From NCBI GenBank assembly GCA_964364225.1, contig CAYIKP010000005.1, positions 1-46,985 of the forward strand: a DNA stretch of 46,985 nt, read 5' to 3'. Numbering within the stretch: position 1 is the stretch's first letter; each line of letters begins with the position of its first letter. This stretch comes from an uncultured Candidatus Saccharibacteria bacterium. GTDB taxonomy: Bacteria; Patescibacteriota; Minisyncoccia; Phycocordibacterales; Zambryskibacteraceae. A program made the translations under genes and the position numbers. Below are positions 7,401 through 43,271 of this stretch, piece after piece. Below the pieces are notes generated by a model. The model saw only the letters and a program-made list of their open reading frames with translations, had not been told where the DNA came from and did no database searches.

Positions 7401-7532
7401 ATGGATCCCGTTAGAAACCGCGGTCGCAGTTTAGTAGGTAAGCTAGCAGATAGCTTAGAATTTTATGTATAAAACACAACAAAACGACATTATAAAAAGT
7501 GAAAGACCGCGACCTGTTTCTAACGGGATGGA
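7401..7532 (+). mobile_element. Start-codon-inserted hairpin element E1 (127 nt, ATGGA direct repeats)
   Basis: ATGGA-TCCCGTTAGAAACCGCGGTC ... GACCGCG-ACCT-GTTTCTAACGGG-ATGGA; terminal inverted repeats; 23-codon uORF from the first ATG. Confidence 0.75.
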
Positions 7533-9072
7533 TTATAGAAAAACCCCGTATTTTAAAGTTGGCAGGTCATCGGAGCTAGCGGGTTCCGACAGATTTTTGT
7601 ATAAAATTTTTGAAATAGTTCCAGGGTTTTTGTCTTGGGGCACCATTGCTTTTTTATTGATTTGTTCATTTTATAAACCAATAATTGCCGCTTATTTCGT
7701 AATATTATTTGACCTTTACTGGTTACTAAAAACGGTTTATTTATCTAATCACAATTTGTATAACTGGAGAAGAATAAAAAATAGTTTAGCTTTGGATTGG
7801 TCTGAAAAGGTTTCTCATTTAAAGTATGAACACATTAGACATTTAGTCATATTTCCTTTTTACGAGGAATCCTTTGAGGTTGTTTCTGAAAGTGTTGAGA
7901 GCATTAAAAGAGCAAATTATGATCATAAAAAAATATTACTGGTTTTGGCATCCGAAGAGAGGGCTGGTGAGACAGCACAAAAAATTGGACAGGATGTAAT
8001 AAAAAAGTTTGAAAATGATTTTGGTGGTCTTTTGTTGACCACTCACCCTAAGGATTTGGAGGGGGAATTGGCTGGAAAAGGATCAAATATTTCTTTTGCT
8101 GCTGAAGTGGCTCGAAAAGATCTATTAGATAAGAATAATATTCCTTATGAAAATGTAATTGTCTCTGCGTTTGATATGGACACAGTAGTTTATAAAGATT
8201 ATTTTCTTTGCCTAGTTTGGTACTTTTTAACAACAGAAAATCCCGAGAAAGCCTCTTTTCAGCCGGTTCCTATTTACAACAATAATATTTGGCAGACAGA
8301 TCCAATTTCTCGCATTGCTGCTTTTTCGAATACTTTTTGGCAAATGATTCAGCAAGAGCGTCCAGAAAAATTAGTAACTTTTTCTTCGCACGCAGTGAGC
8401 TTCAAAGCGCTACTTAGTGTGAATTATTGGCAAACCAATATGGTGTCTGAAGACTCTAGGATCTTTTGGAATTTGTTTTTTGCAAACAACGGAAACTATC
8501 GCGTTGTTCCAATGGCCTATCCTGTTTCCATGGACGCTAATTTCGGCGGTTCTTTTTTTAAGACAATGAAAAATATTTATAAACAACACAGGAGATGGAT
8601 GTGGGGAGCAGAAAATGTGCCTTATATTCTTTTGGGTTGTGTAAAAAATAAGAACATTTCTTTAAGAAAAAAAATTAGCCTAACGCTAGTTCAATTAGAA
8701 GGATATTGGTCTGCTGCCACAAACCCCCTCATAATTTTCCTTCTAGGATGGCTTCCTATTGTCTTAGGTGGTAAGTTTTTTAAAGAAACCGTGCTTTCAT
8801 ACAACCTTCCTGCGATGACAAGAAACTTGATGATAGGGGCTATGTTGGGGCTTATATCGCTTTCAATAATGTCTTACTCACTTTTACCGAAAGATATAAA
8901 AGGAAAGAAAATTACAAAAAAACAAAAATTTATTGCGGTCTTTCAATGGTTGATATTTCCGTTTACAATAATTATCTTCAGCTCATTACCTGCTCTCGAT
9001 GCCCAAACAAGGCTCATGTTTGGAAAGTATATGGGTTTTTGGGTAACACCAAAATATAGAAAAAATGATTAG
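7528..9072 (+). CDS. Membrane-embedded family 2 glycosyltransferase
   Basis: GKGSN, FDMD (DxD), SEDSRI and KQHRRWMWG (QxxRW-like) motifs, flanking TM helices; start placed at ATG 7528 after E1. Confidence 0.88.
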   Translation: MDYRKTPYFKVGRSSELAGSDRFLYKIFEIVPGFLSWGTIAFLLICSFYKPIIAAYFVILFDLYWLLKTVYLSNHNLYNWRRIKNSLALDWSEKVSHLKYEHIRHLVIFPFYEESFEVVSESVESIKRANYDHKKILLVLASEERAGETAQKIGQDVIKKFENDFGGLLLTTHPKDLEGELAGKGSNISFAAEVARKDLLDKNNIPYENVIVSAFDMDTVVYKDYFLCLVWYFLTTENPEKASFQPVPIYNNNIWQTDPISRIAAFSNTFWQMIQQERPEKLVTFSSHAVSFKALLSVNYWQTNMVSEDSRIFWNLFFANNGNYRVVPMAYPVSMDANFGGSFFKTMKNIYKQHRRWMWGAENVPYILLGCVKNKNISLRKKISLTLVQLEGYWSAATNPLIIFLLGWLPIVLGGKFFKETVLSYNLPAMTRNLMIGAMLGLISLSIMSYSLLPKDIKGKKITKKQKFIAVFQWLIFPFTIIIFSSLPALDAQTRLMFGKYMGFWVTPKYRKND

Positions 9073-9925
9073 GCCAATGTCAAAAAAAAGAAGGATGATA
9101 ATGCTAAGCACGCTTATTTTGATATTTTTTGTTGTAGGGCCAGTACTTTTGTTGATGGCATCTGGCTATTCTTTCAAAGAAATAATTTCTCTTACAAAAG
9201 TTAATTTACAAGGAACAGGCGGTATTTACGTTTCTGATATTGGAACTGATACCACTGTTTTTTTGGATAACAAAGAAGTTGGGCGCTCTTCATTTTTAGA
9301 TAGATCTGTATTAGTTCAACAATTAAGTCCCAAAATTCATACCTTGAAAGTACAAAAACCCGGATTCAGGGAATGGACAAAAAAAGTATCTGTTCTACCC
9401 AAGAAGGTGACAGAAATTAATCCAGTTCTTATTGCAGAAAAAGTTTCTTTTGAAAAGATTAATGATAAAAATTCTATTAAATCTATTACAGAAGCATTTT
9501 CAAAAAAGACCGAAGAGGCAATCTCTACTTCTTCTGGAAAAATAGTTTTTGATAATGGAGGGATAGAAGTAAAGATTTTCAGTGAATTAGTGAAATTGAA
9601 ATGGAGTGATATGGATGAAGTGCCTCAATTTATGTGTTTTTATGAAAGATGCGATGATTTTTTGAATATTTCTATTACAGAATCCGTAAAAGATGTTGAG
9701 TGGTTCAAAAATTCTTTTTATGCACTGGTAATTGTTTCTAATGACAGGGTTTATTTGGTTGAACTTGATTCTAGAGAGGGGAGAATAACCACTCTAGTTT
9801 TTACGGCCGCGGATTTTAAAGTAATAACCTTTAATAAACCGCAAGTTGTTTCTTGGAAAGGAAAGATTTACTTAAAGAGTGGTAATAATTTCTACTTATT
9901 AAATTTTGATCCGATATCAGTATAA
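9065..9925 (+). CDS. Membrane-anchored PEGA-like domain protein
   Basis: N-terminal TM, GGIYV...VFLDN...HTLKVQKPGFREWTKKVSV. Confidence 0.7.
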   Translation: MIRPMSKKRRMIMLSTLILIFFVVGPVLLLMASGYSFKEIISLTKVNLQGTGGIYVSDIGTDTTVFLDNKEVGRSSFLDRSVLVQQLSPKIHTLKVQKPGFREWTKKVSVLPKKVTEINPVLIAEKVSFEKINDKNSIKSITEAFSKKTEEAISTSSGKIVFDNGGIEVKIFSELVKLKWSDMDEVPQFMCFYERCDDFLNISITESVKDVEWFKNSFYALVIVSNDRVYLVELDSREGRITTLVFTAADFKVITFNKPQVVSWKGKIYLKSGNNFYLLNFDPISV

Positions 9926-9935
9926 TTAACAACTA

Positions 9936-11084
9936 ATGAAAAATTCATACAAAATACCACTAGACGAACAAAATAGGCTTTTATCAGAGCTTTCAAAAAG
10001 ACAAGATACAGAAAGTGTAAGAATAAAACGTTATCTTGCCATGCCCGATTTATCGAGGACCGAAGGAAGCCCTATAAACACAATGGTAGAGAGCGTGCTT
10101 GCTCGTCCAGAGTTTGATAATTTCGATGTAATAGAAACGCCTGAAGTGGTTCCAGCCAATATAAGTTTTGATTTATTTGATTTTCCATTAGATCACCCCG
10201 CTAGATCAAAATCAGATACTTATTATGTAGACCATAAAAATATACTACGCACTCACACCACAGTTATGTGGTATTACTATTTACAACAAAAAGATGTGAA
10301 GGAACGTATGGCAAAGGGTGAGGGCGTGGGCTGTTTCTCTTTCGGTAAAGTTTATCGTAAAGACGAAATTGATCGCCACCACATGAATGTATTTCATCAA
10401 TTAGATGGATGGTATATTGCCCCCAAAGATAAAGAAGTAATTGGTAAAGAAGAACTTCAAAAAGTTTTAATGTCTATTGCAAAAGCAGTGTTTGGAGAAT
10501 CAGTTGAGGGCAGATTTAATCCTGACACTTTTCCTTATACGGATCCGTCTCTTGAGATGGAAATAAATAAAAATGATAAGTGGACTGAAGTTTTGGGGTC
10601 TGGGGTTGTGAAGGGAAGTGTCTTAGAGAAATTTGGAATTGATTCTACAAAATGGAACGGTTGGGCATTCGGCTTTGGACTTGAAAGACTCGCAATAGTT
10701 TCTATGGAACTTCCCGACATAAGACTTTTATGGTCGGAAGACGAGCGTGTAAAGAAACAATTAATTTTAGGAAATAAATATAAGGAAGTAAGTAAATTTC
10801 CTCCAGTTGTAAGAGACATATCTTTTATTGTTGGAACAGATTTTATTTTGAATGATTATTTTGATGCAATTAGAGATATTGGAGGTGAAGAAGTAGAAGA
10901 AGTTCATCTCCTAGATAAATATGAAAATGCAGAAAAATTTGGCGCGGACAAAACAAGCTATACATTTAGAATTACATATAGAGATATGAACAGAACACTT
11001 ACTAATGAAGAAGTAAACGCAATGCATTCAAAAATTGAGACAATGACTGAAAAAGATTACGAAGGTAAATTAAGACTCGTATAA
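9936..11084 (+). CDS. pheS: Phenylalanine-tRNA ligase, alpha catalytic domain fused to FDX-ACB anticodon-binding domain (organellar-like monomeric type)
   Basis: HPARSKSDTYY, LRTHTT, YRKDEIDRHH..FHQ, GWAFGFGLERLA, then SKFPPVVRDISF...RTLTNEEVN. Confidence 0.9.
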   Translation: MKNSYKIPLDEQNRLLSELSKRQDTESVRIKRYLAMPDLSRTEGSPINTMVESVLARPEFDNFDVIETPEVVPANISFDLFDFPLDHPARSKSDTYYVDHKNILRTHTTVMWYYYLQQKDVKERMAKGEGVGCFSFGKVYRKDEIDRHHMNVFHQLDGWYIAPKDKEVIGKEELQKVLMSIAKAVFGESVEGRFNPDTFPYTDPSLEMEINKNDKWTEVLGSGVVKGSVLEKFGIDSTKWNGWAFGFGLERLAIVSMELPDIRLLWSEDERVKKQLILGNKYKEVSKFPPVVRDISFIVGTDFILNDYFDAIRDIGGEEVEEVHLLDKYENAEKFGADKTSYTFRITYRDMNRTLTNEEVNAMHSKIETMTEKDYEGKLRLV

Positions 11085-11085
11085 T

Positions 11086-11682
11086 ATGGCCCCCATATAC
11101 AGAATAGGGCTTTCGAAAAGCGAAATAAGCCAGAATGCTTTGGAAAAAAGCGGGTTAAAATTTTCTGTGGTAAGGCCTAGAGAAAAGATAGTATCTCTAG
11201 CCGAAAAGTTTCTTGGTGTTCCTTATAAGTTTGGTTCCAGTGTTTTAAATGATAGCCCTAATTCATTTGATTGTTCTTCGTTCACTGCTTATTTATATGT
11301 AGAGGCAGGTATAGCAATACCTAGAATTTGTAATGATCAATACAAATTTGGTGTTGACGCTTATGAAGCGGATGCAAAACCTGGAGATATAGCTTTTTTC
11401 AAAAGTAGCCGAACTGACATAGGGCCAGATGTTGTGGGGCATGAAGGACTATATATTGGAAATGGAGAAATTATTCATGCTGGTGGATTCAGTATGGGTT
11501 ATGGCAAGGTTGTTAAAGAAAAAATTATTGAGTCTAAATATTATCAAACTGGTTTTATGGGATATAAGAGATTAATACTAGATGAATCAGAAAGATTTGT
11601 TATAGAAATCCCTGAGGATAGAATTGATTTAAGAAATAAAGATAGTCTTATAAAAGCAATTAACGATATACTGGATAAATAA
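11086..11682 (+). CDS. NlpC/P60 family cysteine peptidase
   Basis: FLGVPYKFG, FDCSSF, PGDIAFF, GHEGLYIGNGEIIHA. Confidence 0.88.
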   Translation: MAPIYRIGLSKSEISQNALEKSGLKFSVVRPREKIVSLAEKFLGVPYKFGSSVLNDSPNSFDCSSFTAYLYVEAGIAIPRICNDQYKFGVDAYEADAKPGDIAFFKSSRTDIGPDVVGHEGLYIGNGEIIHAGGFSMGYGKVVKEKIIESKYYQTGFMGYKRLILDESERFVIEIPEDRIDLRNKDSLIKAINDILDK

Positions 11683-11683
11683 A

Positions 11684-12241
11684 ATGAAACTCGAAATTCC
11701 ATACCACTCACAGTTTGATGAAATCACTATGCCGGAGTGGAAAAATAGGGGATGTGCAATAGCATGCTTAAAAATGTGTTTAGATTTTACAAAGCCAAAC
11801 GAAATCCCAAGTATTGATAATTTAATAAAAGAAGGGGAATTAATTGGTGGTTATGTAGATAAAATCGGATGGAAACACGAAGCGGTTGTTCGTCTTGCCC
11901 ATAACTATGGTGTAACGGCTTATCCGGAAGAGTTTAGGTCAATAAAGGTGGACATAAACTCAAAAACTTTTTCAGAAAATATTTTAGAGAAAGATTTAAT
12001 CGATAGAGGGATACAAAGAATAAGAGACTCTATAGACAGGAAAGTAGCAGTAATCGTTTCAACATCTACAAAATTAGGGCCGCACCAAGTTGTTGTTGTG
12101 GGCTATGAAGATAATTTGGGAGCAACAACAGGTTTTTTTGTGAACGATCCAGACAATAGAAATAGTGAAAAAAAGGGCGTTTTTGTACCCATTTCTGAGT
12201 TTTTAAATAATTGGCGTAAATTTGCCATTTTTGTCGGCTAG
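11684..12241 (+). CDS. C39-like papain-fold peptidase
   Basis: IPYHSQ, GCAIACLKM, HQVVVVGY, VNDP. Confidence 0.8.
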   Translation: MKLEIPYHSQFDEITMPEWKNRGCAIACLKMCLDFTKPNEIPSIDNLIKEGELIGGYVDKIGWKHEAVVRLAHNYGVTAYPEEFRSIKVDINSKTFSENILEKDLIDRGIQRIRDSIDRKVAVIVSTSTKLGPHQVVVVGYEDNLGATTGFFVNDPDNRNSEKKGVFVPISEFLNNWRKFAIFVG

Positions 12242-12308
12242 TTAAGCCATATTTTTCCACTTTTTATACTTTATTTTTAGGTGTCAATTTGCTATAATTT
12301 GAGTATAA

Positions 12309-14381
12309 ATGGTATCCAAAAGTAAGAAAGATAAGGATGAAAACAAGGCCTCTTCCAAGGGGTCTTATAGCGCGGCCGATATTACCGTTCTAGAGGGCTT
12401 AGAGCCCGTTAGAAAGCGTCCAGGTATGTACATTGGTACAACAGGCCCCGACGGTCTGCACCACCTTATTTGGGAGATTTTTGACAATGGAAGGGATGAG
12501 GCCATGGGAGGATTCGCCAATGATATTGAAGTCGTTCTTCTTCCGGGGAACAGGATTCGTATAGTTGATAATGGTCGCGGCATTCCTGTTGATACCCATA
12601 AACAAACAAAAGTTTCAGCCCTAGAAACTATCATGACCACGCTTCATGCTGGAGGAAAATTTGGCGGGGAAGGTTATAAAGTATCTGGAGGTTTGCACGG
12701 AGTAGGGGCTTCGGTTGTGAATGCACTTTCTGATTTTATGACCGTGATTGTTCACCGTGATGGAGGAAAGTATTTTCAAGAATATTCCAAGGGCAAGAAA
12801 AAAGCAGCAGTTAAAAAACTTGGAGCCTCAAAAGAGCATGGAACTATAGTTACTTTTTCTCCAGACCCAGAAATATTTCAAGAGATTATTTTTGAGTTTA
12901 ATAGAATAGTGCAGCATTTACGCCAACAAGCGTATTTAGTAAAGGGCCTAAGGATTTCAATTATTGATGCTAGAGAGTGGGATGGAAAAATTCCTACTGA
13001 TGAAGTTTTTTATTTAAGGGAGCTTGACTTAGATGTGTCATCACAAACTTTTTATTTTGAAGGTGGTCTTTATTCACTTGTTCGTTTCCAAAACTCTTTC
13101 CAAAAACCGGTTCACAAAAATATTTTTTATGTTGAAAAGAAAACAAACGAATATGAGTCTGTAGAAGTTGCTTTGCAATATGTTGATGATATAAGTTCTC
13201 GCATCTTACCGTTTGCAAACAATATTTATAACGGTGAAGGAGGTACTCATGTAACAGGCTTTAAGACGGCCCTTACCAGAACTTTAAACACGTATGCTAA
13301 AAAGGGAAATGGATCTAAAGATGAAGATAATTTTACGGGGGATGATGTTTTAGAAGGATTGACTGCAGTTATATCGGTGAAACTTCGCGAAGTGCAATTT
13401 GAAGGTCAAACAAAAGCAAAGCTTGGCACCGTTGAGGCACGGGCCGCGGTAGAGAGTGTTTTTGGAGACGCTTTTTCTGCATTCTTAGAAGAACATCCTG
13501 AAGACGGGAGAGCGATAATGGGCAAGGTTCTTTTGGCAATGCGCGCTCGTAAAGCAGCGAAAGCAGCAAAAGATTCCGTGCTACGTAAGGGTGCATTTGA
13601 AGGGATGACTCTTCCCGGGAAATTGGCCGATTGCCAATCATCTTCTGCAGAAGAATCGGAGCTTTTTGTTGTAGAGGGAGATTCAGCTGGTGGTACTGCA
13701 AAGATGGGAAGAGACAGAAGAATTCAAGCCATCCTACCTTTGCGTGGAAAAATTTTGAATATTGAAAGGGCGCGCTTGGACAGAATGCTCGGGTCTGAGC
13801 AAATAAAGAATTTGGTGGTAGCACTAGGAACCGCGATAGGAGACACATTTGATATTTCTAAGCTTCGTTATCACAAAATAATTTTGGCAACAGATGCTGA
13901 TGTTGACGGTGCCCACATTCGCACACTTCTCTTGACACTGCTTTATAGATTTTTCCGTCCACTAATTGATGCGGGTTATGTTTATATTGCTCAACCACCT
14001 TTATATAAAATTAAGATAGGAAAAGAAATAACATACGTTCATTCTCCAGAAGAAAAAGATAAAATCATTGGAAAAAATAACACAGCAGAAATAGAGGAAA
14101 CCTCTGAATCGTTAAGTGATGAAGAGGTTGAAGAAGAAACAGTTGGCAAGGAAGCAAAGAAACCAAAAATTTCGATTCAGCGTTATAAAGGTTTGGGAGA
14201 AATGAACTCTGATGAACTTTGGGAAACCACAATGGATCCTGCACGGAGAATTTTGAAACAAGTGAATATTCAAGATGCACAAGAAGCGGACAAGGTGTTT
14301 GATATTTTAATGGGAACGGATGTACCAGCTAGAAAATCATTCATACAGTCAAACGCAAAATTGGCAAATCTAGATATTTAG
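12309..14381 (+). CDS. gyrB: DNA gyrase subunit B (type IIA topoisomerase B)
   Basis: VRKRPGMYIG, LHAGGKF, GLHGVGASVVNALS, VEGDSAGG, PLRGKILN, DADVDGAHI, QRYKGLGEMN. Confidence 0.93.
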   Translation: MVSKSKKDKDENKASSKGSYSAADITVLEGLEPVRKRPGMYIGTTGPDGLHHLIWEIFDNGRDEAMGGFANDIEVVLLPGNRIRIVDNGRGIPVDTHKQTKVSALETIMTTLHAGGKFGGEGYKVSGGLHGVGASVVNALSDFMTVIVHRDGGKYFQEYSKGKKKAAVKKLGASKEHGTIVTFSPDPEIFQEIIFEFNRIVQHLRQQAYLVKGLRISIIDAREWDGKIPTDEVFYLRELDLDVSSQTFYFEGGLYSLVRFQNSFQKPVHKNIFYVEKKTNEYESVEVALQYVDDISSRILPFANNIYNGEGGTHVTGFKTALTRTLNTYAKKGNGSKDEDNFTGDDVLEGLTAVISVKLREVQFEGQTKAKLGTVEARAAVESVFGDAFSAFLEEHPEDGRAIMGKVLLAMRARKAAKAAKDSVLRKGAFEGMTLPGKLADCQSSSAEESELFVVEGDSAGGTAKMGRDRRIQAILPLRGKILNIERARLDRMLGSEQIKNLVVALGTAIGDTFDISKLRYHKIILATDADVDGAHIRTLLLTLLYRFFRPLIDAGYVYIAQPPLYKIKIGKEITYVHSPEEKDKIIGKNNTAEIEETSESLSDEEVEEETVGKEAKKPKISIQRYKGLGEMNSDELWETTMDPARRILKQVNIQDAQEADKVFDILMGTDVPARKSFIQSNAKLANLDI

Positions 14382-14420
14382 TGCAATATTCTCTCTTGGA
14401 AACTTTAACGAGGAGTGTGA

Positions 14421-14561
14421 ATGTCAGATAAGGGGTTAGCAAAGCAAGAAAAAAATAAGGAAATCCTGTTTTGTACTTGTGATGTAGATCCTGATGAACC
14501 CCATCAAAGCACTTGTCCGTTCAATGAACCTCAGTTAAAGAAAAAAGATGTTACCGAGTAG
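14421..14561 (+). CDS. 46-aa microprotein with CxC...H..C putative metal-binding motif (not in ORF track)
   Basis: AGGAG SD 5 nt before ATG; MSDKGLAKQEKNKEILFCTCDVDPDEPHQSTCPFNEPQLKKKDVTE; terminator-like hairpin overlaps the stop. Confidence 0.6.
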   Translation: MSDKGLAKQEKNKEILFCTCDVDPDEPHQSTCPFNEPQLKKKDVTE

Positions 14562-14640
14562 GCGACATCTTTTTTTGTGCACATTTTTATCAATAAATTG
14601 GTTGTATTATGTATGTAGAAACACTTACCGGAGACAACCA

Positions 14641-14808
14641 ATGACAGTCTATTGTGGTAGGTGTAAGAAACATATCGGAGAGATTTTTCCTTATGACAGA
14701 GAAGGATTGATCCCAGACATCTGTCATGAATGTAAGAAAATCATGGTACAGGAGGTATTGGTAGAGGAAAGAGAAAGAGAAAAAACCCCACAAGAATTCC
14801 GTTGGTAG
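14641..14808 (+). CDS. 55-aa CxxC...CxxC zinc-ribbon microprotein
   Basis: GGAG SD before ATG 14641; CGRC and CHEC; TATTAT -10 upstream. Confidence 0.65.
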   Translation: MTVYCGRCKKHIGEIFPYDREGLIPDICHECKKIMVQEVLVEEREREKTPQEFRW

Positions 14809-14822
14809 TTTTACACAAAAAA

Positions 14823-14855
14823 TATAGGGACCCCCAAAATGGGGTCCCTATTTTT
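14823..14855. terminator. Bidirectional intrinsic terminator
   Basis: atagggacccc-caaaat-ggggtccctat with A/T tracts on both sides, between convergent small ORFs. Confidence 0.8.
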
Positions 14856-14867
14856 CCAACCTCAATC

Positions 14868-15107
14868 CTACTGGACCTCAACCTTGACGAAGATGTCCGC
14901 TGGGTACCACTTTCCATCTTCAAGCTTGATTGCCCAGAAGGCGTCGTCGGTTCCGGCGATGTGTGCAATCTTCGTGCTTTGGACGGTGTGCGCAGAAGCG
15001 GTGGGAATTCTTGCCAACCTTACCAGGGTTCCTGCCGTGAAATGAGGACCATATTCAACGCAGAATCTACGTTCTCCTATCGTTGGAACAACTGCCATCG
15101 TTACCAT
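14868..15107 (-). CDS. Small hypothetical protein (79 aa)
   Basis: GAGG SD before ATG 15107; TTGTAA...TATCTT promoter at the thrS end; ends at the bidirectional terminator. Confidence 0.55.
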   Translation of the reverse strand: MVTMAVVPTIGERRFCVEYGPHFTAGTLVRLARIPTASAHTVQSTKIAHIAGTDDAFWAIKLEDGKWYPADIFVKVEVQ

Positions 15108-15174
15108 CGGTGATGTCCTCATCAGTAAAGGTTGGGACTAAGAAAGATAGCGTATTAATAGAAAATTTACAAGT

Positions 15175-16401: not shown

Positions 16402-16412
16402 AGAATCCTATA

Positions 16413-19592: not shown

Positions 19593-19686
19593 AGCTGAAT
19601 TATACTCAAACATCTGCAATCCACAGGTTTGACACTGGTAAATTTAAATGCTTAAGTTGCGGTAGAAACCTTTACTGGGGGAGCAA

Positions 19687-19890
19687 ATGGCCGTCAAACC
19701 CGAAAGAATTTCTGTGTCCTACTTCAGAGCGAACTTGCCTATGATTCTGACTCGGGTAAGTTTTCTGAATGAGTCGTTTATCATCATGAAGCACGGAAAG
19801 CCGTATGCGGTTGTTAGGCCATCAAATGGTGGGGGTGGTTCTAAGACATCAGATGTTCCAACCGAGGCCCCAGTTAAAAGCGCCGTCTAA
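19687..19890 (+). CDS. Phd/YefM-like antitoxin / DNA-binding protein (solo)
   Basis: ISVSYFRANLPMILTRV...FIIMKHGKPYAVV fits the Phd pattern; TTGACA promoter, GGGGGAG SD. Confidence 0.75.
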   Translation: MAVKPERISVSYFRANLPMILTRVSFLNESFIIMKHGKPYAVVRPSNGGGGSKTSDVPTEAPVKSAV

Positions 19891-19902
19891 CGACGGCGCT
19901 TT
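19877..19902 (+). terminator. Terminator overlapping the Phd-like stop codon
   Basis: aaagcgccgtc-taac-gacggcgcttt. Confidence 0.75.
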
Positions 19903-19923
19903 AGTTTTATGTAAAATACAAAG

Positions 19924-23334: not shown

Positions 23335-23399
23335 TAATTTTGGGAGACTGGTAGTCCGCCCTAAAGCCACAAAGGCGACATGTTATAATTTTTGAAATT

Positions 23400-23539
23400 A
23401 TGTATCCTGTAGTAGAAAATGGCATCCGAGCAATTGTGGGATAATAAACAATATGATTGGTCGAAAGTTAATAAAACTAACAATAAATATTGGTAATTTG
23501 CTCGAGTAGAGCAATGCCATTTTTCACTATCGGGATGTA
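23400..23539 (+). mobile_element. Start-codon-inserted hairpin element E2 (135 nt, ATGTA direct repeats)
   Basis: ATGTA-TCCTGTAGTAGAAAATGGCATCCGAGC ... GCTCGAGTAGAGCAATGCCATTTTTCACTATCGGG-ATGTA; homologous to 43130-43271 on the minus strand. Confidence 0.8.
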
Positions 23540-30235: not shown

Positions 30236-30240
30236 GGGGC

Positions 30241-30269: not shown

Positions 30270-30411
30270 CTCCCTTACCTCGACAGATTGAGTAATGGTA
30301 TCCGGGGGTGCGAACGGGCCGAGAGACTCTTCTCTCCAAAAAGTTTAAAAAAGTAAAAATTTAGAAGCGATAAAACTGAGTCCCAAAAGGGCCAGCGGGT
30401 TTATTTTTTTT

Positions 30412-33645: not shown

Positions 33646-33654
33646 AACAAAACC

Positions 33655-36600: not shown

Positions 36601-37347
36601 ATGCCAAAAAATCCAGCTACTGTTTCTCGTGTAGATGGAATGGTAAGTGAAATCAAAAAAGGCGAAGAAAAAATTATTTGTGTTTTGCCTGATATTAAGT
36701 CTGGAAAAGAGGACAAAATTGAGTATGTTGTTCCGGCCATTCGCGTTATAACGGTAAAAGAGGGTCAGAAAATATCTAAAGGAGATCTACTTACAGACGG
36801 TTCTGCTGATCTAGATGAGTTGTTCAAATATGCTGGTAAGGAGCGCACACAAGAATATCTTATTCGTGAAATTTCAAAGATCTATGAGCTACAAGGTGAA
36901 GCGGTATCAAGAAAGCACATGGAGGTTATCTTGAAACAAATGTTCTCAAGAAGAAAAATTATTTCAACGGGAGATACAGATTTCTCAAGAGGAGACATTG
37001 TGGAATTTGAAGAAGTATTGGATGCAAATGCGAACATGAGAGATGCTGGTAAAGAAGAGGCCAAAGCAGAAGAACTTTTGATGGGTATTACAGAAGTGGC
37101 CCTTTCCAGAAAAAGTGTTCTTTCAGCTGCTTCATTCCAGCACACAACTCGTGTTCTTATCTCAAATGCACTTCGTGCCAAAGATGATGAACTAACAGGA
37201 CTAAAGGAAAACGTTATTATTGGACGCTTAATTCCAGCTGGTACAGGGTTTGAAGGTTCGAAGAAATACAACTTAATCAAAGCTCTACAAAAAGAACTAG
37301 ACGAGAAAGAACAAAGATTTGTTTCACTAAACGAGTCGGGGGAGTAG
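33655..37347 (+). CDS. rpoC: RNA polymerase beta' subunit
   Basis: N-terminal Zn ribbon, NADFDGDQM, AIGEPGTQLTMRTFH, LKENVIIGRLIPAGTG. Confidence 0.98.
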   Translation: MINTKTQKDYQITDFDTVELRLASPDRIKDWSYGEVTKPETINYRTQRSERNGLFDEKIFGPDKDFECYCGKYRGIRYKGIVCEKCGVEITRSIVRRERMGHIELAAPVCHIWFLKSMPSRLALITGVPSGDLEKVIYFAGYIVTKVNISEKDRILKDLDSEFKAKVKSLQDDKSKEHLKGLFQETKKDIESIAVGKVLDEVAYHNFSMKYATLFEASIGSEPLFEMLKNLDLKKLLAELEVNIEKASAAETAKLTKRISLIRHMVLNGIRPEWMFLIRIPVIPPALRPMVPLDGGRYATSDVNDLYRRVINRNNRLKKLKDINAPDVILRNEKRILQEAVDALIDNTIRHSGGAGAVNQSQRRPLKSLSDNLKGKRGLFRQNLLGKRVDYSGRSVIVVGPELELNECGLPKHMALELFKPFVIAELLKRELAYNIRGAGRLIEDGIPEVWAILEDIIKDRYVLLNRAPTLHRLSIQAFKPVLIEGNAIQVHPLVCTAFNADFDGDQMAVHVPLSPEAQLEAKEVMASDKNILKPGSGEPTVISKLLDVVLGAFWMTKDVSGEKGEGKIFDRPNSAILAYDFGELSLRAKIKVRGKTDTAKYAEFKEGLFETTVGRLLFNSVLPPDYPFVNMAIDRKKMSAMFENLIAVYGIGAIPGILDKIKAFSFKYALHSGITWGIDDVKIPDGKGVVVEAALKRANAIKEEFNQGLISEEERLEKNVEIWQSAKAEVEKLLPQTLGNTDSVNDMIQSGARGSISNITQMVGMKGLITNTQGETIEFPIISCMKEGLTPIEYFITTHGSRKGLTDTALNTARAGYLTRKLFDVSQDIIVTEEDCGTKKGIVISTESASGIELSLVKILKGRFLAEDIVDQKGEVVFKRDHFITKQDAEKVALLGVKNVIVRSPMSCASIKGVCKHCYGVDLGKNEIIDLGEAVGTVAAQAIGEPGTQLTMRTFHAGGIASAGGDITQGLPRVEELFENRMPKNPATVSRVDGMVSEIKKGEEKIICVLPDIKSGKEDKIEYVVPAIRVITVKEGQKISKGDLLTDGSADLDELFKYAGKERTQEYLIREISKIYELQGEAVSRKHMEVILKQMFSRRKIISTGDTDFSRGDIVEFEEVLDANANMRDAGKEEAKAEELLMGITEVALSRKSVLSAASFQHTTRVLISNALRAKDDELTGLKENVIIGRLIPAGTGFEGSKKYNLIKALQKELDEKEQRFVSLNESGE

Positions 37348-37358
37348 AATAACCTTGA

Positions 37359-39062
37359 ATGACAAGGGAAATAGAGCAAATAAAAGACCGCCTAGATATA
37401 GTGAGCGTTGTTGGCGAATATCTACCACTTCAAAAAGCGGGGAGTAACTTAAAGGCCAATTGTCCGTTCCACAACGAAAAAACTCCGTCTTTTTTCGTTT
37501 CCCCATCTCGTGGCAGTTTCTATTGTTTTGGTTGTGGTGCAAAAGGAGATATTTTTTCTTTTGTAGAAGAGATGGAAGGATTGGATTTTAGGGGTGCTTT
37601 TGAGTTTCTTGCTAAAAAAGCCGGAGTAGAAATAACAAAAGTATCTCCTCAAATCCGTGCAGAAAATGATAGAGCTATCCTAGCAATAGAAGAAGCAAAT
37701 ATTTATTTCTCTGGCGAGCTAGAAAAAAATAAAGATGCCCACAAGTATCTTTTAAAAAGAGGATTAACAGAAGAGACTATAAAAAAATTCTCGTTAGGAT
37801 TTGCTCCTGCCGGTTGGAGAAACTTGAAAGAATACCTCACAAAGAAAGGTTTTACAGAAGAAGAGATATTGAGGGCAGGGCTTATAAAGAAAGTGGACGA
37901 TGCCGGTGAAAACAAAGAGCCCTACGATGTTTTTAGAGAAAGAATTATCTTCCCTCTGTCTGAATCATCTGGAAGGGTAGTGGGCTTTTCTGGGCGTTCA
38001 ATGGATGAAGACACCAATCCGCCAAAATATTTGAACAGTCCAGATTCAAAAATATTTAACAAAAGTGAAATTCTTTACGGATTAGATAAAGGAAAAAATG
38101 CAATTAGAGAAAAGGACTTCTCAATCATTGTAGAAGGTCAAATGGATCTTTTAATGTCTCATCAATCAGGGATTAAGAATACTGTTGCTGCGTCAGGTAC
38201 AGCGGTTACAAGGGCGCATATTGAAAGGTTAAAGAAAATATCTCCAAGAATTCTTATTTCGCTCGACGCAGATGGGGCAGGGGTGAGAGCTGCGCTTCGT
38301 ACAGCAACAATTGCGCTTGAGCTTGGAATGGAAGTCAAAATAGCAAAATTAACTGGAAAAGATCCGGCGGAAATTATAGAAAAAAATTTAGAAGAGTATA
38401 AGAATTGTTTAAAGAGCGCACTACCATTTATTGAATTCGTCTTAGACATAATAATGAGAGAGACCCTTGATGAAAGGGCGCGTGCTAAAAGAATTGAAAA
38501 AGAGATTGTGCCACTTCTAACATTAATTCAAAGTGCAGTGGAGAGATCTCATACTATAAAGAAGGTAAGTCAAAAAAGTGGAATTCCAGAGAGAGCCCTG
38601 GAAGAAGACACAGAGAGATTTAAAAGGTCAAAAGGCAGGGCAACAATGACAACTAGTGAGAACCCAAAGAAAGAGGTTAAGGGGGATGTAGTAAACCAAA
38701 TTGAAAGACATGCTGTTGGGTTAATGTACGCAATGGAAGAGGGTGAAAAATTTGCACTGGACATAAAGGACTCTTTCTCATTCTTGACAGACGTGGAAAG
38801 ATCCTCTATGCTTCTACGTTACGAACCCAAGCGAGAAGAACTCGTCTTCGAGGTTGAGAACTACTACGGCAATGATGACCCTATTAGGGCAAGCCGGAAC
38901 CTCGAGGAGGTCATCCTCAATTTCAAATCAGATTGTCTTAAAAAACGCCTAGAGGCGTTTGTTGCTGGTTTATCGAGAGCAGAAACGGCGCACGATAAAG
39001 AAAAAGCAAAAGAAATTTTAATGTTAATACAAGAGACTCAAAAGGAGTTAAATAATAAATAG
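37359..39062 (+). CDS. dnaG: DNA primase
   Basis: [11 protein letters not shown]...CFGC zinc finger, PKYLNSP, VEGQMD, DADGAG TOPRIM. Confidence 0.96.
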
Positions 39063-39076
39063 ATAAACATAAACTC

Positions 39077-40309
39077 ATGGCCAAAAAAACCAAAAAGAAA
39101 GTTTCCAAACCAAAATCAAAAAAACCTGCAAAGAAAGTAGTTAAAAAAGTTAAAAAGCTAGTAAAAAAAGCAGTTAAAAAGCCAGCTAAAAAAGTTGCAA
39201 AAGTTTCTCAAAAACAGAATGCTAAAAAAGTAGATATTGACTCTAAAATTGATAAACTTTTAAATAGAGGAAAGTCTCGAGGCTTTGTTACTTATGATGA
39301 AATTCTAAAAGAATTCCCAACAATTGAGCAAAACATTATTTTTCTTGATGATCTTTATGAAAAACTTCAAGCCAATGGCATTGATGTTTTGGAGGGAGGT
39401 GGACTTTTAGATGTTTCTTCTCCAGAGGAAATTACCGTAAGCAAGAAATATGAGTACGGTAGCAGATCAGAAGGCTCTTTCGACTCAATTCAAATGTATT
39501 TAAGGGAGATTGGCCAGTATCCCTTGATTACTGGAAATATGGAAAAGGAGCTAGCTAAAAGAATTGAGGCTGGTGATGAAGAAGCAAAAAATTTACTCGC
39601 AAAAGCAAACCTTCGTTTGGTGGTTTCGATTGCAAAGAAATATGCAAACAGATCCCCTGATTTAACATTGCTAGATTTGATCCAAGAGGGGAATTTGGGT
39701 TTGTTTAAGGCGGTAGACAAGTTTGATTGGACAAAAGGCTATAAGTTTTCGACATATGCTACTTGGTGGATTCGTCAGGCCATAACTCGCGCCTTAGCTG
39801 ACCAAAGCAGAACTATTCGTGTGCCAGTTCATATGGTTGAAACAATTGCTAAATATAAGCAGGTTGTTCGCCGTCTTACACAAGATTTAGGAAGAGATCC
39901 ATTACCAGAAGAAATAGCAACAGAAATGAATATTGAGGTAGAAAAAATTTATCAAATTGAAAAAATTGACCAGGCGACTGTTTCTCTAGAGAGTCCAGTT
40001 GGAGATGAAGGGGATGATGGCAAGTCAAAACTAGGGGATTTTGTGGCGGACGATAAAATACTTTCTCCAGACGCAGAAGCATCTCGTAGAATTGTTCAAG
40101 ATCAAGTGCGTGAAATTTTAAATGAATTACCACCAAAAGAGAGAAAGATTCTTGAAATGCGCTACGGACTTGCAGATGGGTTTACTCATACTCTTGAAGA
40201 AGTTGGAAAGGTCTTTGGTGTTACTCGCGAAAGAATTCGCCAAATTGAGGCAAAGGCATTAGAGAAAATAAGACAGCATGAGAAGATAAATCGTTTGAAG
40301 GGGCATTAA
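39077..40309 (+). CDS. rpoD: Primary sigma factor with Lys-rich N-terminal tail
   Basis: [53 protein letters not shown]. Confidence 0.95.
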
Positions 40310-40315
40310 AAGACT

Positions 40316-40514
40316 GCTCGTAGTGTGCGGTTTCAGAATCAACTGCCGCTCGAGTGAAAATTTTGAAATCAGGAAGCTTCATATAACGAAAAACATCAGA
40401 ACTCGTCCTTCGACAGGCTCAGGACTCAAACAGCTGATGTTTTTCTATTACGCTAATCCTGATTTCAAAATACTCTCGTGAGCTTCCAAAACCGCACACT
40501 ACTCGCTTTAAGTT
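40316..40514. repeat. ~190-nt rod hairpin of the CGCTC...CTCGCT family (after rpoD)
   Basis: gtagtgtgcggttt/aaaccgcacactac, attttgaaatcagga/tcctgatttcaaaat, gaaaaacatcag/ctgatgtttttc; ends ctcgctttaagtt. Confidence 0.75.
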
Positions 40515-40530
40515 CTAAATAAAAACAAAT

Positions 40531-40562
40531 CAGCCCCCCACTTTTACAAAAGTGGGGGGCTG
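40531..40562. terminator. Hairpin terminator
   Basis: cagccccccactttt-ac-aaaagtggggggctg. Confidence 0.75.
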
Positions 40563-40596
40563 TGGGGTCATGTGAACCTAAGGCCCTACTGCAATC

Positions 40597-40785
40597 TCAG
40601 GTTGGTGTTGGTCGTTGACACGCTCGTAAGCCCACAATAAAGCCGGCGAGCATGGCGGTGAAGAGAATTACCGCTGCACCGAGCGGGTCAGCAAGCTCAC
40701 CAGATTCAATCCGGTGAGCCATTGACATTGCACCTCCGAAGGCCAGTACATAGAGTGTCACAAACAACAACGCGAACGCTCGCAT
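40597..40785 (-). CDS. Small two-TM membrane protein (62 aa)
   Basis: TTGACA-17-TATAAT promoter (40848-40820), GAGGT SD, two hydrophobic helices. Confidence 0.65.
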   Translation of the reverse strand: MRAFALLFVTLYVLAFGGAMSMAHRIESGELADPLGAAVILFTAMLAGFIVGLRACQRPTPT

Positions 40786-40905
40786 ATATACCTCGGGTAG
40801 AGGGAACTTACTAACTCTTATTATATACTCATTGTATATGAATGTCAATAGGTTAAAATAACCCTATAAATAAGGGTATTTTGATAGTGTGATAAAATAA
40901 TAGAA

Positions 40906-42369
40906 ATGAAACCACTTTTAATTTCAAAAACTACATTTCTTGAGTTTTTGTTTTGTGCAAAAAACATTTGGCTAAAGCTTCATAAGCCAGATTTGGCGCA
41001 CATGTTTAAACTTTCAGACTTTGAAAAACAATTAATAGAGCAAGGAAATGAAGTAGATAAATATGTTCAAAAAATATTTCCAGACGGAATAGTCGGGAAT
41101 ATTAAAGGAGAAGGAACATATTTCCAGCCCACATTTGAAGCTGATGGTTTTTTAGTGAGGTGCGATGTATTGGAATACGACAACAAATCTAAATATTGGA
41201 ACTTATTTGAGGTGAAGGCTACAAATTCAATAAAAGAAAATGGAGGACTTCGTGACCATATAGATGATGTGACATTTCAGGCTTCTGTTTTAAAACGAGC
41301 GGGTTTAAATGTGGGTAAATATTTTCTTATAACTTTGAATAAAGAATATGTAAGGTGGGGCGACTTAGAACCAGAAAAACTTTTTATAAAAGAAGATGTG
41401 ACAGAAAAAGTTTTACTTAAACTTCCTGAAGTTGAAGCCCAAATGGAGGCGGCTAAAGAATATATAGCCAAAACTGAAGAACCAAAAGGTAATTGTGAGT
41501 GTTTATTTAAGGGGCGATCTCAACACTGCTCAACATTTGAATACTCGAACCCACAGGTGCCAAAATATTCTGTGCACGACCTTTCTCGTATTGGCTCTAG
41601 TAAAAACAAATTACAAATGCTCATTGAACAGGAAGTTTTTGACATAGCGAATATTCCAAGTCACTTTGAGTTTTCAGACATTCAACACAATCAAATTCAT
41701 GTCCATAAAAATGATAAGCCGATTATTAAACATGATGAAATATTTGATGCACTAAATAGTCTAGAGTTTCCTCTTTATTTTTTTGACTACGAAACATTTG
41801 CTCCAGCCATACCTGCTTTTTCTGGTTTTAGGCCGTATCAACGTATTCCTTTTCAGTTTTCACTTCATATTTTACATAAGCCTGATGGGGAACTAGAACA
41901 CTTTGAATATTTACATGAAGATTTTAGTGACCCGTCAGAAAATGTGGCAAAATTTTTAGATAAATACATAGGTGCCAAAGGGACTATTATCACTTGGAAT
42001 AAATCATTTGAAGCTGGAGTAAATAAAGAGATTGGCGAGCGCTTGTCTGAATATAAAAAACTGATGGATAGGCTAAATGGAATGCTTTATGATTTGATGG
42101 ATATATTTCGCGCCCAGCATTATGTGCATAAAGACTTTAAAGGAAGTACTTCAATTAAAAAAGTCTTGCCAGTAGTAGCGCCACATTTGGATTATAAAAA
42201 GCTAAATATTTCTGAAGGGGGAGCTGCCTCCGAATCCTGGTGGAAAATGGTTGGCCCTACCACACCCGATTCGGAGAAGAAACAAATTGCAAAAGACCTG
42301 AAAGAATATTGCGGATTAGACACCTTTGCTATGTACGAGGTTTGGAAGCACCTTACTAACCTTTCTTAA
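40906..42369 (+). CDS. DUF2779-domain protein (PD-(D/E)xK-like N-terminus plus RNase H-like C-terminus)
   Basis: RCDVL...FEVKAT; FPLYFFDYET...PYQRIPFQFSLH, SIKKVLP, EYCGLDT. Confidence 0.75.
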   Translation: MKPLLISKTTFLEFLFCAKNIWLKLHKPDLAHMFKLSDFEKQLIEQGNEVDKYVQKIFPDGIVGNIKGEGTYFQPTFEADGFLVRCDVLEYDNKSKYWNLFEVKATNSIKENGGLRDHIDDVTFQASVLKRAGLNVGKYFLITLNKEYVRWGDLEPEKLFIKEDVTEKVLLKLPEVEAQMEAAKEYIAKTEEPKGNCECLFKGRSQHCSTFEYSNPQVPKYSVHDLSRIGSSKNKLQMLIEQEVFDIANIPSHFEFSDIQHNQIHVHKNDKPIIKHDEIFDALNSLEFPLYFFDYETFAPAIPAFSGFRPYQRIPFQFSLHILHKPDGELEHFEYLHEDFSDPSENVAKFLDKYIGAKGTIITWNKSFEAGVNKEIGERLSEYKKLMDRLNGMLYDLMDIFRAQHYVHKDFKGSTSIKKVLPVVAPHLDYKKLNISEGGAASESWWKMVGPTTPDSEKKQIAKDLKEYCGLDTFAMYEVWKHLTNLS

Positions 42370-43134
42370 TTATTTGAGCACTGCATCTAGTGCCTTTCTC
42401 AGAATTTCTATTGGTTGTGCACCGTTCACTATGATTTTGTTTGTTCCATATATAACAACTGCATTTTGACTGGAAAGAGAGACGGCTTTCATTGCATTTA
42501 TTTGTGTTTTTGTAAAAGGTTTGTTTGAAACAATAATGCTATATGGGGTGCCAAGGCCACCAGCCGAAATTGCTTCCTGATAATCTCTTTCTACTTTTGC
42601 TTTTGCGTCACCCTTTGTAAGACATGATGTGAATGTATCTTTTGGGAGACCTTCACCTTCTGCTAGTGCTGGAAGTATTGATGTGTCTAAAGTGTCATTT
42701 GATGTGGCGATATTATAAATTTTATTAGTAAACCTCCAAAAACCTTCGTTACCACCAACAATGCCAGCACACTCCATTGCCTCTGATTCGTATCTGGCTT
42801 TTTTATGAAGAGTATCAACAGGGAAATGTCTGTATACCCACGCAAGTTTACCGACAAAATCTTTATCAGTAGTGAGCTCTATCATTGTGTTGTGGAATCT
42901 TTTGCACCAAGGACATTCTGGATCTGAATATTCAATAAGAGTTAAATCTGCATTTTTGGGGCCGATTATATAATCATCAGCTTGCACCTCTTTTATAGTG
43001 AGTTCTTTTTGGGGAGCCGATGGTGTTGTTTCAATAATGGTTTTGCTCGTTGGTACTTTAGATAAATAGATACCACCACCAATAAATACCCCGGCAATAA
43101 TAATTGAGCCCGCCAAAACAAGTGTGTTTTTCAT
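42370..43134 (-). CDS. DsbA-family thiol-disulfide oxidoreductase
   Basis: N-terminal TM, EYSDPECPWCKRFH, YRHFP, GTP, NGAQP; start placed at ATG 43134 after E3. Confidence 0.9.
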   Translation of the reverse strand: MKNTLVLAGSIIIAGVFIGGGIYLSKVPTSKTIIETTPSAPQKELTIKEVQADDYIIGPKNADLTLIEYSDPECPWCKRFHNTMIELTTDKDFVGKLAWVYRHFPVDTLHKKARYESEAMECAGIVGGNEGFWRFTNKIYNIATSNDTLDTSILPALAEGEGLPKDTFTSCLTKGDAKAKVERDYQEAISAGGLGTPYSIIVSNKPFTKTQINAMKAVSLSSQNAVVIYGTNKIIVNGAQPIEILRKALDAVLK

Positions 43135-43271
43135 CCCGATAGTGAAAAATGGTATTGCTCTATTCGAGCAGGTTACCACTATTTATAATTAGTTTTATTA
43201 AATTTCGATCTGTCATCCTATTTTATTAACCCTTAGCTGGCTCGGATACCATTTTCTACTACAGGATTCAT
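43130..43271 (-). mobile_element. Start-codon-inserted hairpin element E3 (137 nt, ATGAA direct repeats)
   Basis: Minus strand ATGAA-TCCTGTAGTAGAAAATGGTATCCGAGC ... GCTCGAATAGAGCAATACCATTTTTCACTATCGGG-ATGAA; homolog of E2 with a compensatory C-G to T-A change. Confidence 0.8.

Follow-up and report, generated by a model that had tools for sequence, protein, structure and literature searches.

The window analyzed here is the 46,985-nucleotide (nt) contig CAYIKP010000005.1 of assembly GCA_964364225.1, taken at its full length, from an uncultured Candidatus Saccharibacteria bacterium placed in the Zambryskibacteraceae (Patescibacteriota). Three genes in it, encoding a family 2 glycosyltransferase (GT2), an SMC_N-family protein (smc), and a DsbA-like thioredoxin-fold protein (dsbA), are each preceded by a hairpin-forming insert (E1, E2, and E3, respectively) that ends inside the start codon and provides its first base (Table 1). 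The window is contig C5 of genome G000, which comprises 16 contigs and 553,522 bp at ~38% G+C and is rated 100% complete. A sequence-only reading of this DNA had placed the three inserts at start codons, with repeat-to-repeat lengths of 127, 135, and 137 nt for E1, E2, and E3, and had taken them to be nonautonomous mobile elements or excisable RNA inserts; the positions and lengths were confirmed. Considered jointly with the other parts of the explanation that we favor, it is probable that E1, E2, and E3 represent a superfamily of small, non-coding, hairpin-forming mobile DNA elements of Paceibacteria-type bacteria of the Candidate Phyla Radiation (CPR; Patescibacteria).

The pattern ATGNATCCYGT occurs three times in the window against 0.20 expected, and none of 100 shuffled sequences reached three; CGGGATGNA also occurs three times, against 0.64 expected, and three occurrences were reached in 2 of 100 shuffles. 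A −10-like box, already noted from the sequence, was read 8 to 10 nt ahead of the first ATG at all three inserts. Among six other gene starts read in the window, four or five have an extended −10-like box 7 to 10 nt before the ATG, and none of the six has a Shine-Dalgarno sequence, so that the label "near-leaderless" is a reasonable one for this genome. The related notion that the elements are confined to leaderless genes did not hold, since operon-internal starts are occupied as well. A generic promoter scan (27 sites versus 53.5 expected) was uninformative.

Orthologs of smc, dsbA, and GT2 were located in five genomes of the same genus (G001 to G005), of which G002 is the clear sister of G000, with protein identities of 80 to 94% versus 61 to 75% for the other genomes. 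An element stands at smc in G000, G002 (94% identical DNA), and G001, and the smc site is empty in G003, G004, and G005. At dsbA, G000 and G001 carry an element, and G002, G003, G004, and G005 have the site empty; at GT2, G000 and G002 carry one, and the site is empty in G004 and G005. Each of the empty sites shows a single ATGNA behind the same −10 box. At smc, one ATGTAT or ATGCTC lies 7 to 8 nt after the same TGCTAYAAT box; at dsbA in the sister genome G002, the −10 box found at E3 is followed by a single ATGAAAAAC; and at GT2 in G005, the TAGTGT box recurs with a single ATGGAT. Because same-genus genomes show single-ATGNA empty sites, the inserts are true insertions, and the proposal of a nonautonomous mobile element at translation starts, whose loss along with one repeat would give back the native gene, is supported by the ortholog comparison for three of three genes. 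Closely related species differ by the presence or absence of the element.

Table 1. Coordinates of the inserts E1, E2, and E3, their flanks and genes in the window, and of the sites at which the two element families replace each other between species
Feature	Location	Strand	Remarks
−10-like box TAGTGT	7385..7390	+	Preceded by TGG; 10 nt 5′ of first ATG of E1
E1 old start	7401..7405	+	A plus 5′ copy of target TGGA
E1, family A, 123 nt	7406..7528	+	Termini TCCCG...CGGGA; AT-rich variable loop
E1 3′ copy of target TGGA	7529..7532	+	Start-codon bases 2 and 3 plus two more bases
GT2 gene, 514 aa	7528..9072	+	Glyco_trans_2_3; start codon rebuilt by E1, first base of working ATG being the last A of E1 (7528)
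Extended −10 box TGT-TATAAT	23381..23389	+	10 nt 5′ of first ATG of E2
E2 old start	23400..23404	+	A plus 5′ copy of target TGTA
E2, family B, 131 nt	23405..23535	+	Last A (23535) is base 1 of working ATG
E2 3′ copy of target TGTA	23536..23539	+	
SMC_N-family gene, 742 aa	23535..25763	+	
−10 box TATAAT	43280..43285	−	Preceded by TGT; 8 nt 5′ of first ATG of E3
E3 old start	43267..43271	−	A plus 5′ copy of target TGAA
E3, family B, 133 nt	43134..43266	−	
E3 3′ copy of target TGAA	43130..43133	−	
DsbA-like thioredoxin-fold gene, 254 aa	42370..43134	−	DsbA/Thioredoxin_4
Family swap site 1	G000 contig C1, at 14903		Family B in G000; family A in G002 (L064)
Family swap site 2	G000 contig C14, at 4440		Family B in G000; family A in G002 (L065)
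Family swap site 3	ksgA-like gene		Family A in G000 and G002; family B in G001

Regex, BLAST, and nhmmer scans of G000 located 21 full copies belonging to two families, 13 of family A (113 to 124 nt, including E1) and eight of family B (131 to 137 nt, including E2 and E3), together with one partial family B copy. Both families have the termini TCCCG...CGGGA. The arms of family A are CCCGTTAGAAAC-CGCGGTC and GACCGCG-ACCT-GTTTCTAACGGG, and its loops are AT-rich and mutually unrelated; family B copies are ~80% identical over their whole length. What the members of the superfamily have in common is confined to the termini and the basal stem, TCCCGT...ACGGGA (TCCCGTTAGAAR / YTTCTAACGGGA in family A). 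Of the full copies in G000, 17 adjoin the ATG or GTG of an open reading frame (ORF) of at least 147 codons, and 14 of these 17 have the same xTGN(A) on both flanks. The match of the fourth base between the two ends, first seen at E1, E2, and E3, holds in all 14 and takes all four values (G, A, C, and T).

The register relative to the start codon was examined across the class in a pool of family A copies from G000, 60 loci from relatives, and 80 collection loci, from which 16 partial nhmmer matches and four duplicates had been removed. The collection loci were gathered by an exact 21-nt pattern of the 3′ arm that ended at CGGGA and did not include the following TG. In 113 of the 124 unique full copies, TG comes directly after the terminal A or G of the element, and 108 of these 113 are followed by an ORF that has at least 60 codons or stays open to the end of the locus. 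An exact flank repeat is present in 89 of the 113, with a length of 4 bp in 62, 3 bp in 20, and 5 bp in seven, and the base before the 5′ repeat in these 89 is A in 86, G in two, and T in one. The remaining 11 of the 124 copies lie outside the register. Family B counts were read by eye from the copies in G000, G001, and G002: the flanks match xTGN(A) in seven of eight copies in G000, and the register is found at 16 of 18 sites in G001 (one of the 16 on the assumption that two contig-end halves pair) and in one further copy in G002.

The junctions explain how a start codon is rebuilt. The sequence-only reading had inferred a duplication of the gene's own first bases, ATGNA; the duplication stands, its extent does not, the target being TGN(R), 3 to 5 bp long and mostly 4 bp. 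The A of the downstream ATG is the last base of the element itself. The 5′ copy reads GTG where the 3′ copy reads ATG at four loci (L041, L045, L058b, and L116) and TTG where the 3′ copy reads ATG at a fifth (L069); such conversions of an old GTG or TTG start into ATG assign the terminal A to the element. Copies with a C..G terminal pair have the arrangement ATGAA-CCCCG...CGGGG-TGAA and yield a GTG start (in G000, and alike in the G002 ortholog). Off-start copies have 4-bp repeats with a base other than A before the 5′ repeat (G|TCTA, T|GCAA, G|TTCA, and C|CTCA). The fifth base can be G at both ends (ATGAG and ATGGG copies), which assigns it to the target rather than to the element. In about nine-tenths of the copies, then, integration into DNA has taken place between the first and second bases of a start codon, with a 3- to 5-bp duplication that ends in a purine; the old start, or the TGA with which an overlapping upstream gene stops, is retained in the 5′ copy, and the 3′ TGN together with the A or G of the element forms a rebuilt ATG or GTG that leaves the frame untouched.

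The 3′ junction is constant (CGGGA|TG) and the 5′ junction variable, falling after base +4, +5, or +6 of the gene. All eight copies with C or T at gene base +5 have a repeat of 3 bp; of the 72 copies with A at this position, 55 have a repeat of 4 bp, 11 one of 3 bp, and six one of 5 bp. This repeat-length rule indicates that the base just before the element is a purine able to pair with the U of the AUG. In an alignment of 107 family A copies (A1, which is biased to conserved 3′ arms and from which five of 111 references, L162, L089, L137, L114, and L179, were left out for irregular length or ends), the last flank base and the U of the AUG form A-U in 75 copies, G-U in 23, and another combination in nine. 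By analogy, a fixed 3′ and a loose 5′ junction would resemble the products of mechanisms that make one cut precisely and the other loosely. Such a pair of junctions would also fit target-primed reverse transcription; RVT_1, however, is absent from the copy-rich genomes G001 and G002.

The inserts fold into stable RNA hairpins, with free energies of −42.3, −43.7, and −36.4 kcal/mol for E1, E2, and E3 (z = −6.0, −5.9, and −4.3), and none of 200 shuffled sequences was as stable. The stem of E1 consists of a 13-bp basal helix, a 3′ bulge ACCT, and a 7-bp second helix. In the folds the basal helix covers the A and the U of the downstream AUG, as the sequence-only reading had it. In alignment A1 the basal helix comes to 14 bp when the flank pair is counted, and together with the 4-nt bulge ACCT on the 3′ side and the second helix of 7 bp it gives a structure with 97.2% of cells paired; 10 of the 21 pairs change on both sides, in 61 cells, and none of 500 shuffles or six slid registers came near these values. 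One sublineage alters the second helix and the bulge together (CGCGATC / GATCGCG-ATCT), a joint change that hints at an alternative pairing. A leader peptide was considered on account of 5′-arm changes that looked synonymous in the frame of the first ATG and was rejected, because repeats of 3, 4, and 5 bp give different frames.

The hairpins are strongly oriented. The bulge is gene-proximal (3′) in 113 copies, versus three inverted TG-register sites represented by four copies, the fourth of which (L058a) is the G002 ortholog of the copy at 29053 on contig C4 of G000. Two inverted copies, L131 (GTGAA|...|TGAACC) and L179 (TTGAG|...|TGAGGA), sit at apparent GTG and TTG starts of ORFs, from which it follows that either orientation integrates in the same register relative to the gene. 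At the third inverted site (C4 29053 and L058a), ATG TAA is read on the opposite strand and starts no gene (strand read by hand). Selection acting on the transcript is the best reading of this bias in orientation. The G000 copy at this third site (C4 29053-29172), a family A element off any gene start with the repeat TTACA (ATGTAA on the other strand), lies about 470 bp from a partial family B copy at C4 29642-29723, and the region that holds both may be a small non-coding region in which elements collect.

The sites themselves are of more than one kind. A TANNNT hexamer lies 3 to 12 nt before the old A in 52 of the 89 exact-repeat copies, a count made without a shuffled control. For 12 of these 89 copies, the TGA within the 5′ ATGA is the stop of an upstream ORF at least 50 codons long, an operon stop/start overlap, and at such sites the duplication keeps the upstream stop and the downstream start together. 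Targeting of transcription starts pure and simple was rejected on the strength of these operon-internal overlaps. The off-start repeats are unrelated to one another and end in a purine (GCAA, TCTA, TTAA, CAGA, TTCA, CTCA, TCGA, and CAGG); because these targets lack TG, sequence preference alone does not explain the start register.

The same starts have been hit more than once. E3 shares 93% identity with another copy in G000 (C1 60757-60889) versus 78% with the copy at dsbA in G001, which ranks sixth among the listed G001 and G002 matches and fifth among those of G001. Since E3 is nearer to the copy in its own genome and the sister genome G002 is empty at this site, the dsbA start codon was, as far as these comparisons go, most likely hit twice independently; the alternative would be precise loss in G002. 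At three genes, the same base holds a family B element in one species and a family A element in a second (Table 1). In L128, an element with a CAGG repeat is nested in the loop of another. On the minus strand of this locus, at 6650-6735 and 6993-7140, we also observed a short GC-rich family with the same basal stem, one copy flanked by TCGA and the other holding the nested element; the other families have only the basal stem YCCCGTTAGAAG/CTTCTAACGGGR in common. G016 contains near-identical copies at contig ends, with TG after the terminal A, and, at locus L084, a tandem pair separated only by TTCA (..CTAACGGGA-TTCA-TCTCGTTAG..). The near-identical copies and the tandem pair point to recent activity.

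In the order-level neighborhood of the window, family A arms were detected in 11 of 41 genomes and family B in eight of 41. The spread is patchy: G001 has 19 family B and no family A matches, G002 has 17 family A arm matches and two family B matches, and neither family was found in G003 or G004. At least 116 stretches of a species-representative genome collection contain the exact 21-nt 3′ arm, and the arm-bearing records are titled mostly as Paceibacteria/Parcubacteria lineages, among them Nomura-, Zambryski-, Kaiser-, Taylor-, Harrison-, Lipton-, Sung-, Buchanan-, and Moranbacteria. Many arm-bearing records are titled "uncultured Candidatus Saccharibacteria", which may be generic labels. In an even sample of the phylum, the exact arm was found in three of 301 genomes, all of the window's class, so these titles probably do not signify spread beyond the Paceibacteria. 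DNA of the window is matched by groundwater sequencing runs of several studies (12 runs listed); the one RNA run among them (X10) covers almost none of it.

We did not detect Y1_Tnp (PF01797), DDE_Tnp_1, or rve domains in G000, in a search that did not extend to TnpB, serine and tyrosine recombinases, IS630, IS1595, and others; for these three domains, the earlier remark that the window lacks a transposase was borne out for the whole genome. DDE_Tnp_1 and rve were likewise not detected in G001, G002, G016, or G003, and one rve match was found in G033. Y1_Tnp is absent from G002 too, with one match in G001 and two in the copy-free G003. RVT_1 has three matches in G000 and two in the copy-free G003. 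The G000 matches (C15 9560-10168, C2 6740-7351, and C1 53291-53818) lie in ORFs of about 260 to 330 aa, one with an internal TAG, and may belong to diversity-generating retroelements. No matching termini were found around a transposase-sized ORF in G000 or in the collected loci, as would mark an autonomous element. A 2.4-kb stretch between inverted family A copies on contig C2 was considered as a transposon and rejected, as it is tuf-rpsJ-rplC.

Viral contigs gave no match to the family A arm, and phage and plasmid collections gave none to either arm. Nine viral-contig matches to a family B 17-mer were dismissed as chance, only two giving an nhmmer match (18 nt, E 0.13). At gathering thresholds, Rfam 15 recognized only two tRNAs in the window; at E up to 10 it gave no match on E1 and four chance-level matches on E2, none of them an intron or ribozyme. 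Joints from 7425 to 7505 and from 23425 to 2351x in assembled contigs were considered as excision products and turned out to be other family copies with different loops. A resemblance to attC, dif, and topoisomerase sites was considered and discarded because the arm order and cut positions do not fit. In the literature we found no description of such an element, or of such start-codon targeting precision in bacterial mobile elements, and the view that no described element class behaves in this way agrees with what the literature and Rfam searches returned.

Short (about 110 to 145 bp), non-coding, multicopy, and bounded by terminal inverted repeats, the elements are in kind like MITEs, the miniature transposable elements that carry inverted repeats. 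The Correia elements of Neisseria (PMC3184786) and the ERIC and RUP/BOX elements, which are transcribed together with genes, are similar in being small, non-coding, and multicopy, with terminal inverted repeats and short target duplications, and also in strain-to-strain presence and absence, mRNA hairpins, and lack of a transposase of their own. They differ in having simple targets such as TA and scattered intergenic positions, and a parent insertion sequence (IS) is known for many; none is reported in a fixed start-codon register or as supplying the first base of the codon. Neisseria REP2 and the Borrelia IR likewise lie directly upstream of many genes and carry an ATG used downstream (PMC3184786). 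They are cassettes of promoter, ribosome-binding site, and ATG, with no terminal inverted repeats, and they are not described as duplicating the first bases of the gene. Rickettsia palindromic elements are also mobile palindromes tolerated in a reduced genome with the gene product functional (PMC3184786, citing Ogata 2000), but they lie in frame within coding sequence and are translated, whereas the elements described here lie at the start codon and run into early stops from the first ATG.

The REP/REPIN-RAYT systems share with these elements hairpin repeats of similar size in a genome without an ordinary IS partner. REPINs are intergenic, mostly situated at 3′ ends, and no target duplication is described for them; the elements described here occur without Y1_Tnp in G000 and G002, and Y1_Tnp occurs in the copy-free G003. 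The "byps" of Magnusiomyces mitochondria are mobile hairpin inserts with identical flanking codons. The coding gap in phage T4 gene 60, now described as belonging to a mobile element, is an insert of the same description (10.1101/2022.08.31.505936). Both lie within reading frames and measure 27 to 55 nt, and a bypass here would, hypothetically, start from the initiation codon. Ty3 integrates at the transcription starts of RNA polymerase III, no more than a base or two away, and so lands at a landmark of gene expression and not at a sequence motif. It is a eukaryotic long terminal repeat retrotransposon tethered by transcription factors, whereas the landmark here is the translation start, including promoterless operon-internal starts. 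What sets the present elements apart from the bacterial repeat families known to us or found in the literature is the single-base start register in more than 90% of copies, the terminal base that rebuilds the codon, and the use of both leaderless and operon-internal starts across a whole class. A recognizable transposase is lacking as well.

With moderate confidence, we infer that the register reflects a choice of target and not only the survival of random insertions. Under the alternative, insertion would be random at short NNNR targets, and in a ~90% coding genome only insertions that rebuild a start would survive. The off-start copies with unrelated purine-ended 4-bp repeats mean that targets of other kinds are open to the machinery, the genomes are highly compact, start codons carry elements in both orientations as symmetric termini predict, and the strong forward bias must be selection in any case. 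Yet insertions in a spacer or between the −10 box and the ATG, even a few bases upstream of the start, would leave genes equally intact and are almost never seen, 113 of 124 copies being in one single-base register and 11 elsewhere; the near-identical, presumably young copies in G016 keep the register too, and the same starts have been hit repeatedly. On these grounds we regard random insertion as unlikely. A leader RNA of the riboswitch or attenuator type, inherited vertically and acting in cis, would also lie directly upstream of starts with a stable fold, compensatory changes, and a short upstream reading frame. It is contradicted by the empty sites at three of three genes and fits poorly with functionally unrelated downstream genes, families A and B at the same site, the nested copy, the patchy occurrence among genomes (no family A match in G001, G003, and G004 versus 17 in G002), an upstream frame that differs with repeats of 3, 4, and 5 bp, and the lack of an Rfam match, so that we consider it very improbable.

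Two further alternatives concern what becomes of the insert once it is in place. It might be neutralized at the level of RNA or translation, by precise removal from the transcript or by bypass from the first to the second AUG, and the identical AUGN(A) flanks, joined by a stable helix, would serve as matching take-off and landing codons. Ribosomes bypass mobile hairpin inserts in yeast mitochondria, and we know of no bypass longer than that of phage T4 gene 60. The latter is also a mobile hairpin bypassed by ribosomes, and its 50 nt would be exceeded by a bypass of 127 to 137 nt here (10.1101/2022.08.31.505936). Matching AUG/AUG flanks are present in most family A copies and absent in 24 of the 113; some copies have lost the 5′ ATG (to ATC, ACG, or ATA) or never had it (a stop stands at the 5′ foot), and because such copies exist, a take-off AUG would not be required. 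No Rfam ribozyme or intron matches at E up to 10, and the size is far below that of group I or II introns; we give removal or bypass little credence. An outward promoter in the loop or 3′ half, leaving a short unstructured leader from the 3′ arm and no hairpin in the mRNA, has a precedent in the Correia elements (PMC3184786). Family B has a TGGTAnnnT-like motif ~35 nt before the ATG (aatattggtaattt, aatagtggtaacct) that resembles the extended −10 boxes of the genome (TGGTAGTGT, TGGTATAGT), and the loops of family A are AT-rich. The first base of the hexamer is C in two of seven family B copies, however, the family A loops are not conserved, and the register, compensatory changes, and orientation bias are explained no better, which makes such a promoter an improbable account.

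Several observations weigh against the explanation that we favor. Collecting loci by an exact arm limits variation of the 3′ arm and over-represents well-preserved copies. Off-start insertions occur at targets without TG. A repeat that ranges between 3 and 5 bp would be unusual as the work of a DDE transposase, an enzyme with a fixed stagger. An exact 5′ repeat is missing from 24 of the 113 start-adjoining family A copies, seven of which have the stop codon of an upstream ORF 0 to 1 nt from the element. Two operon sites, for which relatives show the likely ancestral arrangement, illustrate this. Between rplC and rplD, G001 has ATGTAA-TT-ATGGAA versus ATGTAG-element-TGGAA in G000 and G002, and after the gene upstream of a ksgA-like gene, G003 has TTCTAA-T-ATGAAA and G005 TTCTAA-TATGAT-ATGAGA versus TTCTAA-element-TGAAGCC in G000. 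At both sites, the spacer and the expected 5′ copy are gone, which a simple cut-and-duplicate model does not explain; the copy could have been deleted afterwards, or joining on the 5′ side could have taken another form. Neither Y1_Tnp nor RVT_1 correlates with element content across the 41 genomes. No integrase or transposase was identified among the families searched, and the evidence for mobility is comparative.

The mechanism that accommodates most of these features is tentative. Integration machinery supplied in trans would choose start codons, and the gene would then be transcribed with the element as its leader, the hairpin looping the insert out. The end of the helix would place the old 5′ end, or an upstream stop, beside the rebuilt AUG, and a ribosome starting or stopping at the 5′ foot of the stem would melt it and free the AUG, by reinitiation or coupling, unless the stem were processed instead. 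The bias toward a 3′ bulge would be selection at the RNA level. That gene expression survives behind the hairpin by melting of the stem is a suggestion we offer with low confidence, beside which true bypassing, a promoter carried by the element, and cutting of the bulged stem by an RNase specific for double strands stand as alternatives. The full proposition, that the machinery recognizes start codons as such (ATG, GTG, or TTG, promoter-proximal and operon-internal) and cuts between their first and second bases, and that the hairpin passes the ribosome on to the rebuilt AUG from the old start or, where there is one, from the upstream stop, we regard as possible and somewhat doubtful.

Some further observations concern starts within the elements, additional hairpins, and the size of the SMC_N protein. 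Many family B 3′ arms carry an in-frame ATG 21 nt before the junction (ATG CCA TTT TTC ACT ATC GGG ATG) that would add MPFFTIG to the protein; in E2 it lies at 23514 (window 23514-23537). At the family B copy on contig C8 (27468-27602, equivalent to about 1469-1603 on the minus strand of L229), both flank repeats are ATAAAA, there is no junction ATG, and the only start-like codons of the 302-codon frame lie within the element; the gene behind this copy may use an element-borne start. A scan for termini only revealed further short hairpins with related feet (CCCGTACAAAACAG..., CCCGTTAGATAGG..., CCCGTGAGATAGC..., and CCTGTTAGAAGTT...) at C1 55485-55544, C2 26140-26200, C2 50842-50937, C7 7479-7754, C9 2717-2825, C4 48880-49024, and C6 37062-37205, which may be additional families of the same superfamily. 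Typical bacterial SMC proteins have roughly 1100 to 1200 aa; the genus orthologs of the 742-aa SMC_N protein are open frames of similar size (736 to 790 aa), with 526 aa in G002.

More than 100 copies, in many species, in one single-base register at start codons, each restoring the codon with its terminal base, would be unexpected to a specialist in mobile elements. If the register reflects targeting, a protein or complex would have to recognize translation starts at the level of DNA, for which we know of no mechanism. If the genes behind the elements are active, smc, rplD, the ksgA-like gene, and dsbA among them, their ribosomes have to start at an AUG that is held in the foot of a helix of −36 to −44 kcal/mol. 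On the practical side, assemblies of Paceibacteria genomes are broken by the elements, which lie at contig ends, and gene callers can be misled by them in the choice of starts. The finding bears on how translation starts in CPR bacteria, with their leaderless, Shine-Dalgarno-poor genes, and should both start-codon recognition and the hand-over of the ribosome prove true, they would amount to a new target rule for prokaryotic mobile DNA and a new form of initiation behind a large structure.

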